Position numbers and translations under genes: made by a program. Below are positions 3,444 through 34,202 of a stretch of 41,954 nucleotides of DNA, one piece after another. The DNA is taken from NCBI GenBank assembly GCA_038065755.1, contig JBBTQJ010000015.1, positions 3,218 through 45,171 of the forward strand, read 5' to 3'. The first letter of the stretch is position 1, and every line of letters starts with the position of its first letter. A model generated the notes under the pieces. The model was not told the origin of the DNA. It saw only the letters and a list, made by a program, of their open reading frames with translations, and searched no databases. This DNA is from Patescibacteria group bacterium (GTDB taxonomy: Bacteria > Patescibacteriota > Minisyncoccia > Minisyncoccales > Staskawiczbacteraceae).

Positions 3444-3477
3444 TGCCAGAATTTCTACGATCGTAGAAATTCTGGCA
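3444..3477. repeat. Perfect 34-bp palindrome centred on CGATCG
   Basis: tgccagaatttctacga|tcgtagaaattctggca. Confidence 0.9.
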
Positions 3478-32009: not shown

Positions 32010-32059
32010 TTGACAATGAAATATTATTATGCTATCTAAAATTAGCATGCTCTTTTACA
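32010..32059 (+). promoter_or_regulatory. Promoter followed by a boxA-like motif
   Basis: TTGACA at 32010, TG-c-TATCTA extended -10-like, then tgctcttttaca (32048..32059). Confidence 0.5.
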
Positions 32060-32085
32060 AAACGCGGCAAAACAGGAGACTTCTT

Positions 32086-32373
32086 ATGAGTAAGGTGTGG
32101 TATACAATATCTTACAATACCAACGCTCGTAGTCCCGATCATATTTCTGAATGGGGCGTAGATGTTGGTCTGCAGTTGGTTCATGTAGACACAAAAGAAA
32201 AGGCAGAAAGATTAATGTCTTTGGTAGTTTCAGAATGGGAAAACTTCTATGTTTTTTCTAATTTATATGGTCCTTTTGACAGTGTAGAGGAAGCAAGAGA
32301 AGATTATGAAAAAAAAGTTAATCGCACCGCCAGCGCTTTCTGCCGCCCGGATGTTCGTCTTTGGAAAAGGTGA
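32086..32373 (+). CDS. Hypothetical protein (95 aa, start MSKVWY)
   Basis: AGGAG SD before the ATG at 32086; own promoter and downstream ccgcc...ggcgg-T-tract terminator. Confidence 0.65.
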   Translation: MSKVWYTISYNTNARSPDHISEWGVDVGLQLVHVDTKEKAERLMSLVVSEWENFYVFSNLYGPFDSVEEAREDYEKKVNRTASAFCRPDVRLWKR

Positions 32374-32472
32374 AAGCATTAAAACATCGGCAAAAAAAAC
32401 CGACAAAGATGTCGATAAGCCGCCCGACGAAAATTTGTCAAAGGCGGTTTTTTATTAAATTTTTTTATTTTT

Positions 32473-32540
32473 TATCCCCGTATTCCTGTATCCCCGTATT
32501 CCCGCCTTATACCTGCGATCGCAAATATAACGCGGGAATA
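32473..32540. repeat. Four 8-bp tandem units running into a 44-bp imperfect palindrome centred on GCGATCGC
   Basis: tatccccg tattcctg tatccccg tattcccg; tattcccgccttatacctgcgatcgcaaatataacgcgggaata (32497..32540). Confidence 0.85.
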
Positions 32541-32558
32541 GGTTAATAGGTTAGGATA

Positions 32559-33140
32559 TCAATCTAATTTAAAAAATTTCTTGAGGTCTTTTTCTTCGCC
32601 AATATCTTTAACGGTAATAAGCCTAATTTCTTTATTTGATAGTCCAAAAAAAGACTTTAACATTTCAATTTCTTTTGTGCAATCATAGGGAATAATCCAT
32701 ACGCTTTTTTGCAATATAACAAACCCCATGCTTTTTAGCTTCCCCCTGAAAGCTTCTCTGTATAACTTTTTTAACTCAGCGATATCAAACATTAGTATTC
32801 GCCACTTGCCGTCCCATTTTTCAGTTTTTTTTATCTTCAAATCATTTATCTGCATCCAGCTGGTCTTTTTCTTTCCCTTTTTGGTGAGCAAAAAGTAAAT
32901 TTGACCGCCTTCTTTATAAAAATCTATAAACCCCTGCTGTTTTAAACGATAAAAAGTGTCATAAACCTTTCTGCGCGGATATTTCTTAAACCTCTTAAAT
33001 CCCTTTAAAAGATTTACCAAAAAAAATGGAGAGGTTGCGGCGATAGTAACTATGCCGGCAACCAATAAAATTATTAATATATCCTTAGCTATTTCTGATT
33101 TTGGTATTTTAAAATAATATTCGGGTCGTTTTATTTTCAT
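32559..33140 (-). CDS. PaaX-like protein (hydrophobic N-terminal helix + winged HTH + Cas2-like ferredoxin-fold domain)
   Basis: YRLKQQGFI...LTKKG (wHTH); WDGKWRILMFDI.E...R..FR.KL..MGF..LQKSVW (PaaX central/Cas2-like). Confidence 0.85.
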   Translation of the reverse strand: MKIKRPEYYFKIPKSEIAKDILIILLVAGIVTIAATSPFFLVNLLKGFKRFKKYPRRKVYDTFYRLKQQGFIDFYKEGGQIYFLLTKKGKKKTSWMQINDLKIKKTEKWDGKWRILMFDIAELKKLYREAFRGKLKSMGFVILQKSVWIIPYDCTKEIEMLKSFFGLSNKEIRLITVKDIGEEKDLKKFFKLD

Positions 33141-33234
33141 AATTCTATATTAAATTTTTTATTTATTATTAAATATCTTTTATTTTGTTTCGCTATTTCA
33201 GTGTAGTTTATTTTATCATATATAATTTAATCAC

Positions 33235-33271
33235 GCTATATATTTGCGATCGCAAGTGTAGCACGGGAATA
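33235..33271. repeat. Second GCGATCGC-centred palindrome, upstream of the PaaX-like gene
   Basis: tgcgatcgcaagtgtagcacgggaata (33245..33271) matches 32514..32540 at 23 of 27 positions. Confidence 0.8.
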
Positions 33272-33354: not shown

Positions 33355-34173
33355 TTATAATCTAAATAGTTCTCTGGCGTTTTGGGTCGTGATTTCTGCA
33401 ACTTCTTCAAAGCTAATTCCTTTTAGGTCTGCTATTTTTTGAATTGTATATTTAATAAAAATCGGCTCATTGCGCTTGTCTTTTCCTTCTATTGGGGGAG
33501 TTAAATACGGGCAATCGGTTTCAATTAATATTCTATTCAATGAACAATTCTTTATGACTTCTTGCATATCTAATTTAAAGATTATTCCATTTAAACCGAT
33601 ATAAAATCCTAAATTTATATATTGCTGCGCCTCTTCTTGGTTTCCTGTAAAACAATGAATAACTCCTTTTGTATTATTCGTTTTCAAAATTTCTAAAATA
33701 TCTTGGTGCGCCATTCGACAATGCAAAATGACTGGTAAGTTTAATTCTTTTGCCAGTTCCAGTTGTTCAACAAAAACTTTTTTCTGCGCTGTTTTAAATT
33801 GTTCTAATTTTATTTTTGTTTTCGGTTTGTAATAATAGTCTAAACCGATTTCGCCAATAGCCACAACCTTTTTTGATTTTGCTAAATTGCGATATTTTTC
33901 GTAGTCAAAATTTTGTTCTTTAACTAAAAATTCACCTTCGTTTGGATCTGTTTTTATTTTTACAAATTGCGCTCCGGCGTAAATCGGGTGCATTCCAATG
34001 GCGGCATATATATTTTCGTATTTTTCAGCTAATTCAACGGCTTGCTTTGAAGTCTCGTATTTTGTGCCGACATCAATGCAAACAACGCCCTGTTCTTGAG
34101 TTCGTTTTATAACCTCTTCCCTGTCGCTATCGTATGCTTTGAAATTCAAATGGCTGTGAGTATCAATTATCAT
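33355..34173 (-). CDS. tatD: TatD-family deoxyribonuclease (start MIIDTHSH)
   Basis: DTHSHL, GMHP, AIGEIGLDY, ILHCR, IHCF, IETDCPYL, RNEP. Confidence 0.95.
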   Translation of the reverse strand: MIIDTHSHLNFKAYDSDREEVIKRTQEQGVVCIDVGTKYETSKQAVELAEKYENIYAAIGMHPIYAGAQFVKIKTDPNEGEFLVKEQNFDYEKYRNLAKSKKVVAIGEIGLDYYYKPKTKIKLEQFKTAQKKVFVEQLELAKELNLPVILHCRMAHQDILEILKTNNTKGVIHCFTGNQEEAQQYINLGFYIGLNGIIFKLDMQEVIKNCSLNRILIETDCPYLTPPIEGKDKRNEPIFIKYTIQKIADLKGISFEEVAEITTQNARELFRL

Positions 34174-34202
34174 ATCTTTTATTTTATATCTGTATTTCAA
34201 AT

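Follow-up and report, generated by a model that had tools for sequence, protein, structure and literature searches.

A short PaaX-like gene enclosed by paired dyad-symmetric sites in a Patescibacteria genome

In a stretch of 41,954 nucleotides (nt) from an ultra-small groundwater bacterium, a Patescibacteria group bacterium (GenBank assembly GCA_038065755.1, contig JBBTQJ010000015.1, positions 3,218 to 45,171; hereafter, the window), a single short gene lies among genes that Pfam names as housekeeping genes and between two copies of a 44-nt dyad-symmetric site. Its product joins a winged helix to a Cas2-like domain of the PaaX_M type, and we refer to it as the mini-PaaX gene. The arrangement of palindrome, gene, and palindrome is a trait of the whole family to which the gene belongs, and the protein very probably recognizes the palindromes that flank it, as judged from comparison of proteins and sites across genomes. 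The interpretation we favor, with moderate confidence, is that the protein acts as a mini-PaaX repressor, binding as a dimer to the two sites that enclose its gene. The family is apparently a large and undescribed one of self-enclosed protein-and-site modules; a search of the literature, in which subscription journals were not covered, returned no description of short PaaX-like proteins flanked by palindromes in Patescibacteria.

The locus and its two sites

The mini-PaaX gene (32559..33140, minus strand) is an open reading frame (ORF) of 193 amino acids on contig C15 of the focal genome (G000: 682 kb, 38 contigs, 92% complete). By Pfam names, the order of genes at the locus runs from MetRS and CsrA upstream through TatD (33355..34200, minus strand), which is the 5′ neighbor, to the mini-PaaX gene, an unnamed ORF of 114 amino acids without a Pfam match (32029..32373, plus strand) that converges on it, and LeuRS downstream. 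No paa catabolic gene is found among these neighbors. An initial reading of the DNA, made from the letters alone (the sequence-only reading), had remarked that the window holds no cas1, and this absence extends to the whole genome at its 92% completeness, which has no match to Cas1 (PF01867). Nothing resembling CRISPR repeats is seen at the locus, where the tandem repeats are 8-nt units only. A homolog of the 114-residue ORF, 62% identical, occupies the equivalent place in a genome of the same genus (G001), and in other genera the orthologous loci have a different gene here, one for a small membrane protein.

The sequence-only reading had also pointed to a 27-nt segment repeated on either side of the gene. 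The two segments (32514..32540 and 33245..33271) indeed differ by four transitions only, and they extend to a direct repeat of 44 nt (32497-32540 and 33228-33271) with 77% identity. The member of this pair that follows the gene, the 3′ site (32497..32540), begins 19 nt past the stop codon and is an imperfect palindrome centered on TGCGA|TCGCA, with 22-nt arms that are 86% complementary; we propose it as a binding site. Its copy, the 5′ site (33228..33271), lies 88 nt before the start codon and is the proposed operator. The suggestion that both repeats sit within palindromes thus holds in full for the 3′ site, but the 5′ site has decayed, its arms being 71% complementary and palindromic around the center only. 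Against the subfamily pattern CGCC-N7-TGCG-N2-CGCA-N7-GGCG, the 3′ site shows 1 mismatch and the 5′ site 3.

The octamer GCGATCGC occurs twice in the window, both times at a site center, where 0.15 occurrences are expected and none of 100 shuffles gave 2. It is one core variant of the site family, in whose subfamily the commonest core, among the matches listed, is TGCCA|TGGCA. A role as a palindrome iterated genome-wide, as HIP1 is, was rejected for the octamer, with 12 copies in the genome against 1 to 23 for other G+C-rich palindromes of eight letters.

The 3′ site runs, as had been noticed from the letters, into four tandem 8-nt units (32473..32504; consensus TATTCCCG; Tandem Repeats Finder: period 8, 4.0 copies, 79% matches), the last of which is the outermost arm of the palindrome and the others reiterations of that arm. 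A second short tandem duplication, AATAGGTT (32537..32553, 2.1 copies by the same program), marks the other edge of the site. Short tandem duplication of site arms seems to be recurrent, being seen at the focal locus, in the corresponding gap of G001, and on the contigs of two paralogs (C6 and C14). About 12 nt downstream of the 5′ site, on the minus strand, TGATAAAAT (33210..33218) is a candidate extended −10 element, picked out by eye and held with low confidence. Downstream of the 3′ site on the gene's strand, a hairpin of 7 pairs with a T-rich tail, TTTTTTTTGCC (32399..32416, minus strand), resembles a terminator by consensus match only; if it is used, the 3′ site and the 8-nt units would fall within the 3′ untranslated region.

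A PaaX-type protein without an effector domain

The sequence-only reading had described the product as combining a winged helix-turn-helix with a Cas2-like domain that retains an acidic residue in the motif MFDI, and profile searches, a structural model, and the family alignment all bear this description out. The Pfam family PaaX_M (PF20803) matches residues 107-184 with 70.7 bits against a cut-off of 24 (E 1.2e-19). An AlphaFold2 model built from a 40-sequence alignment (mean pLDDT 79.6) places a winged helix-turn-helix at about residues 14-85 in the order helix, strand, helix, helix, and two-strand wing, a linker helix at 87-99, and the Cas2-like domain at 107-190, of which 113-177 are ferredoxin-like. 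The hydrophobic N-terminal helix (14-28) forms helix 1 of the winged helix with moderate model confidence; alternatively, it may be a membrane anchor. Pfam matches to the winged-helix part, TrmB and PadR, are weak. Foldseek ranks E. coli PaaX first (8a39, 8.7e-7), followed by Rv0674 (3kfw) and then by Cas2 chains at 24-34% identity (5zyf, 28-34%), and a single-sequence search of the Cas2-like part against solved structures returned nothing useful. A predicted homodimer scored 0.25 against a mark of 0.42, a value that speaks neither in favor of binding nor against it.

The protein falls outside the curated definitions of both of its nearest relatives. With PaaX, the phenylacetyl-CoA-responsive repressor of E. 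coli and Pseudomonas (Pfam PaaX, PaaX_M, and PaaX_C), it has in common the winged helix and the Cas2-like central domain. Yet it scores 47.5 bits against the 264.55 of the PaaX equivalog TIGR02277, the match being confined to its residues 57-161 and to profile positions 35-136, and it lacks the C-terminal ligand-binding domain: no Pfam match to the effector-binding PaaX_C was found at E up to 1, and the chain ends at residue 193, just past the Cas2-like domain. With Cas2 it has the ferredoxin-like fold in common (Foldseek-aligned identity to S. pyogenes Cas2, 28-34%) as well as an acidic residue after strand 1 and a second strand of the QKSVW type, both conserved in the family. It remains, however, below both Cas2 cut-offs (PF09827, 15.6 bits against 23.8, E 0.018; TIGR01573, 17.5 against 24.5), has its domain fused to a winged helix, and resides in a genome where Cas1 is not found; PADLOC likewise gave weak Cas2 matches only, the best at 1.5e-4. 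The labels "hypothetical" and "PaaX" that databases attach to proteins of the family are corrected by the present analysis.

The acidic residue in question is D119, which we equate with the metal-binding aspartate of Cas2 from profile alignments that start at residue 113. It is invariant in all 40 aligned family members, as are W109, F118, R128, R132, F140, Q144, S146, and C154.

Palindromes, paralogs, and inheritance across the family

Of 41 related genomes, 21 carry the family, one of about 0.6 Mb having as many as 14 copies, and a scan of species genomes gave at least 544 relatives. Among 60 family genes from the 21 genomes, 45 have a long palindrome (14 or more pairs) within 200 nt and 21 have one on each side, against 90 and 2, respectively, of 581 other genes of the focal genome held to the same criterion. 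An independent sample from Staskawiczbacteria, Nealsonbacteria, Paceibacter, and other Parcubacteria, composed of loci with both flanks among the matches listed, gave 56 of 76 loci with any palindrome and 25 with both, a count that includes some G+C-rich terminator stems of the upstream gene. Seen from the side of the palindromes, carrier genomes hold 39 long ones in 845 kb, 13 of them no more than 100 nt away from one of 11 family genes, and the 728 kb of five non-carrier genomes hold 11 palindromes, nearly all G+C-rich or terminator-like and one with an A+T-rich middle. The flanking palindromes that the sequence-only reading proposed to look for beside homologs are thus a regular feature of the family.

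The dyads measure 36-48 bp across the family. The focal genome itself carries six PaaX_M genes, five of which are bracketed by long palindromes whose sequence is private to each paralog, and family-wide the clades of the proteins match the clades of the sites. The sixth and most divergent paralog (C38:2596-3018) has a palindrome, with the core CGG|CCG, at its 3′ end only, and a G+C-rich hairpin precedes the gene; both of its flanks recur at its ortholog in G007. Many family genes are found no more than a few hundred bases from contig ends (in G020, G002, G014, G018, and G011; for instance, C110:9-548 in G020, and C34:6-449), probably as a result of long perfect palindromes breaking short-read assemblies, so that copy numbers in fragmented genomes may be underestimates.

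Co-variation of protein and palindrome, which had been proposed as a check, is found when residues and bases are compared over 96 cassettes. The strongest associations join core bases 2 and 4, counted from the center, to residues 121, 122, 125, and 129, located where the first helix of the Cas2-like domain begins. Base 2 is C in 30 of 38 cases where residue 122 is Q, and G or T in all 36 where it is E; base 4 is G in 47 of 49 cases with K at residue 125 and A in 27 of 35 with R. The focal protein (E122, K125, E129) and its core, TGCGA|TCGCA with G at bases 2 and 4, agree with these rules. Further out, the best partners of bases 10-16 are residues 59, 63, and 65, in the recognition helix of the winged helix. 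These patterns, together with the family-wide layout and the private sites, lend support to the earlier suggestion that the protein may bind the palindromes, and recognition of the flanking sites is very probable on comparative grounds. It appears to be the Cas2-like domain's first helix that reads DNA bases, a role in which Cas2 is not known to act.

The sites themselves are built in blocks. The core is conserved (base 1 is A in 75 of 88 sites and base 3 is C in 89 of 92), and dyad symmetry is tight at bases 3-5 and 9-11 (4-11% asymmetric), relaxed at bases 6-8 (23-31%), and present again throughout the outer block of bases 9-18. Such a profile, tight core, loose spacer, and tight outer block, suggests two blocks that are read and not one uniform stem. 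It also bears on a function at the level of RNA, where the palindromes would serve as mRNA hairpins (terminators, stabilizers, or processing sites) that a Cas2-like ribonuclease might cut, a proposal that we regard as very unlikely. Its attraction is that the 3′ site folds as single-stranded DNA beyond its shuffles, best on the sense strand of the gene (z −4.1 on the plus and −5.6 on the minus strand), and that the 3′ sites of relatives, though not the 5′ sites (5 G-T, 6 A-C), show a weak excess of G-T over A-C mismatches (11 against 3). Yet folding is not seen for the 5′ site, non-wobble kinds make up 42 of the 67 mismatches (against 16 G-T and 9 A-C in all), the would-be loop at the center is the most conserved part and the middle of the stem the least symmetric, and most 3′ sites have no T run after them. 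A search of Rfam found no RNA family above threshold and gave two sub-threshold matches to microRNA-like hairpins on the 3′ site.

Sites also occur away from family genes. Other paralogs of the focal genome have two to four such solo sites each, nearly identical within a family and sitting tightly between unrelated housekeeping genes; the adjoining genes, which serve translation, cell wall, and sugar-nucleotide functions or encode aminoacyl-tRNA synthetases, display no functional theme. Four nearly identical solos of the form AGCTnTCACGATTTTCTACGA|TCGTAGAAAATCGTGAnAGCT (G000 C14:4811, C31:1680, C31:16076, and C36:31575) follow fusA, separate sugar-nucleotide genes, or lie at the junction of infB with rbfA, and are closer to each other than to the pair flanking the presumed cognate gene on C6. 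None of the four relatives that hold rbfA has the solo at the infB-rbfA junction. The one at fusA occurs at the same position in G000 (C14:4811-4852) and G001 (L181:3583-3624) as a perfect palindrome (21/21) in each; about 8 of 21 arm positions differ between the two, always with the matching change in the other arm, and each solo carries the cassette-family sequence of its own genome. Also adjoining rbfA and infB is a free-standing ORF of 256 amino acids with a LAGLIDADG_3 domain (L074:2394-3161, contig C36 of G000). Within the window, the perfect 34-nt palindrome TGCCAGAATTTCTACGA|TCGTAGAAATTCTGGCA (3444-3477; C15:6661-6694), 11 nt from an ORF of 74 amino acids, belongs to the site family of the C14 paralog and not to that of the focal gene. 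A link between the mini-PaaX gene and palindromes scattered across the window, as first imagined, therefore fails: there is no third copy of the focal family among them, and the others belong to other paralogs or are terminator-like.

The turnover of solos, with the infB-rbfA solo absent from relatives and the fusA solos tracking their own genomes, keeps alive, together with the invariant D119, the idea of a REP-RAYT-like system on the Cas2 fold, in which the protein would nick or process its cognate palindromes through the acidic site and spread solos while the gene itself is inherited vertically. RAYT genes are flanked by cognate REP repeats and are vertically inherited, and the focal gene matches them in both respects, with dispersed copies for some paralogs. 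The likeness ends with the enzymes and the numbers: RAYTs are of the HUH/Y1 class and their repeats run to tens or hundreds, whereas the mini-PaaX protein has no Pfam match to an HUH, Y1, or tyrosine-transposase domain at E up to 1, and dispersed copies number 0 to 4 per family, none for the focal one, with one or two solos in the 845 kb of other carrier genomes. Nuclease activity remains putative, and the symmetry profile and the residue-base association point to read-out of double-stranded DNA; on balance we judge such a system unlikely. A related and rather improbable proposal makes the Cas2 fold a sequence-reading head on the palindrome center that perhaps nicks through the invariant acidic residue, so that the protein would make or maintain the repeat-gene-repeat units and the solos of the paralogs as a REP-RAYT-like or proto-CRISPR-like system. 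If true, it would suggest repeat recognition as an ancestral property of the Cas2 fold.

The tight placement of solos between unrelated genes, the sites at both gene ends, and the convergent gene that the 3′ site faces would also suit an architectural or boundary element, through which protein bound at these positions insulates transcription units or organizes DNA in the manner of AspA and does not act mainly as a classical repressor. AspA, the centromere-binding protein of the Sulfolobus plasmid pNOB8 (4rs8, 5k5q), binds a palindrome adjoining its own gene, and in a profile search of solved structures it is the best match to the winged helix of the mini-PaaX protein (5.5e-4). That match is marginal, however, and any winged helix could yield the like; AspA has no Cas2-like domain, the focal setting is chromosomal, no partner ATPase, partition gene, or other conserved neighbor is seen, and up to 14 paralogs with private sites per genome are unlike a segregation system. 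We therefore give this explanation little credence.

The layout of site, gene, and site had first been likened to an integron cassette, and a mobile unit, excising between its flanking sites and inserting at solos like such a cassette or a dif module, was one possibility raised from the letters. Three observations favor it. The distribution of the family is patchy. G001, of the same genus, lacks the gene; what it keeps between TatD and the homolog of the 114-residue ORF (L036:1190-1510) is a palindrome of the focal subfamily in degenerate form, two sets of tandem repeats next to this palindrome (3 x 15 nt and 3 x 19 nt), and a further palindrome that belongs to another family; an empty site that retains one palindrome, which had been named as a thing to look for, therefore exists. 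In most other relatives and in all outgroup families examined, TatD adjoins LeuRS across a gap of 9-155 nt without a palindrome, which indicates that the unit entered the locus once. The 3 x 19 nt set in G001 takes in the outer arm of the palindrome, like the 8-nt units at the focal locus.

Against present mobility stands the inheritance of the gene. Five other genomes, of at least four other genera (G002, G009, G014, G016, and G020), have orthologs with 57-64% identity at the TatD-X-LeuRS position, and other paralog groups likewise have both flanks in common across genera. Syntenic fixation had been named beforehand as an outcome contrary to the proposal, and the orthologs do keep their position. 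Pairs of family genes with a flanking gene in common amount to about 1-4% below 60% protein identity, 26 of 90 at 60-70%, and 13 of 25 at 70-80%. The closest copies within a genome are 73% identical. The two tyrosine recombinase genes of the focal genome lie on other contigs (C13 and C4), and the locus, unlike an integron, has no adjacent integrase and a single gene in place of an array of attC cassettes. A single deletion between 44-nt direct repeats would explain the absence of the gene from G001 without dedicated machinery. Assembled contigs from five DNA sets of two studies contain no joint of 32518 to 33249, the junction expected from excision between the sites, an absence that carries no weight in a form of data that drops rare variants; they do contain two LeuRS-to-TatD joints (31926>33434 and 31942>33500), whose shorter sides span 25 and 33 letters and match at 85%, and which fit relatives where LeuRS and TatD are adjacent. 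On this comparative evidence the gene does not look mobile at present, and we hold a mobile cassette to be highly improbable.

A dimeric autorepressor as the favored model

We infer binding, dimerization, and repression from the observed architecture, its conservation across the family, and the residue-base association. In the model, the short PaaX-type protein would sit as a dimer on a dyad-symmetric site of about 40-44 bp, one dimer per site, with the two Cas2-like domains on the dyad center, each reading bases 1-5 of its side (here TGCGA|TCGCA), and the two winged helices reaching the outer blocks of bases 9-18 (here around CCGCC). Both bracketing sites would be cognate. Occupancy of the 5′ site, which closely precedes the likely −10 element, would repress transcription of the gene itself, as E. 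coli PaaX does at the Px promoter; the 3′ site, a second site of the same protein, could form a loop with the 5′ site or block transcription arriving from the convergent neighbor. Among 31 relatives that have a 5′ palindrome, hexamers resembling a −10 element are concentrated 5-25 nt past its edge, as counted without a control for chance, so that the promoter-proximal arm of the site would cover the −35 region.

The nearest precedent is E. coli PaaX, which, according to a review (PMC9493321), binds TGATTC(N27)GAATCA, a 39-bp dyad with widely spaced half-sites, and represses its own promoter. The scale of the family's dyads matches that operator and supports a PaaX-like reading of the 44-nt focal dyads. 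By analogy, the module would work much like a PaaX repressor-operator pair, yet it lies outside the PaaX equivalog and Cas2 cut-offs, its site is palindromic throughout with a conserved core, sites stand at both gene ends, and the family comprises many paralogs with a private site each. Given the family layout, the private sites, and the co-variation, the description "self-regulating cassette" offered by the sequence-only reading appears to fit.

Several observations weigh against the autorepressor. Fifteen of the 60 family loci have no palindrome by our criterion, and some relatives carry perfect 48-60-nt palindromes, which exceed most operators in both length and exactness. The raw residue-base association is inflated by shared ancestry: among phylogenetically independent pairs, about 3 of 3 change in the same direction for Q/E122 (p = 0.25) and 4 of 7 for R/K125, with 3 unchanged (p = 0.125), comparisons that are underpowered and in which no pair runs in the opposite direction. 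At the focal locus, the 5′ site is degenerate and folds as single-stranded DNA no better than its shuffles (z +0.25 and +0.56), and scanning the gene's strand for the sigma-70 consensus turned up no promoter upstream of the gene. The 3′ site faces the end of a convergent small gene at the focal locus and at both orthologous loci checked, and so is not an operator for any downstream promoter. Finally, the 682-kb genome holds no member of the focal site family beyond these two, which leaves the ends of the gene itself as the only visible targets, and self-regulation alone brings no obvious benefit.

Patescibacteria have tiny genomes with few recognizable regulators, and nonetheless a single one of them can hold up to 14 copies of this family. 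If the autorepressor model is true, the family would supply naturally occurring, mutually orthogonal repressor-operator pairs, every one with a 40-bp site of its own, and the associations between residues and bases would amount to a partial recognition code that could be tested by two or three point mutations. It would also be the first case of a Cas2-type domain that reads DNA bases.

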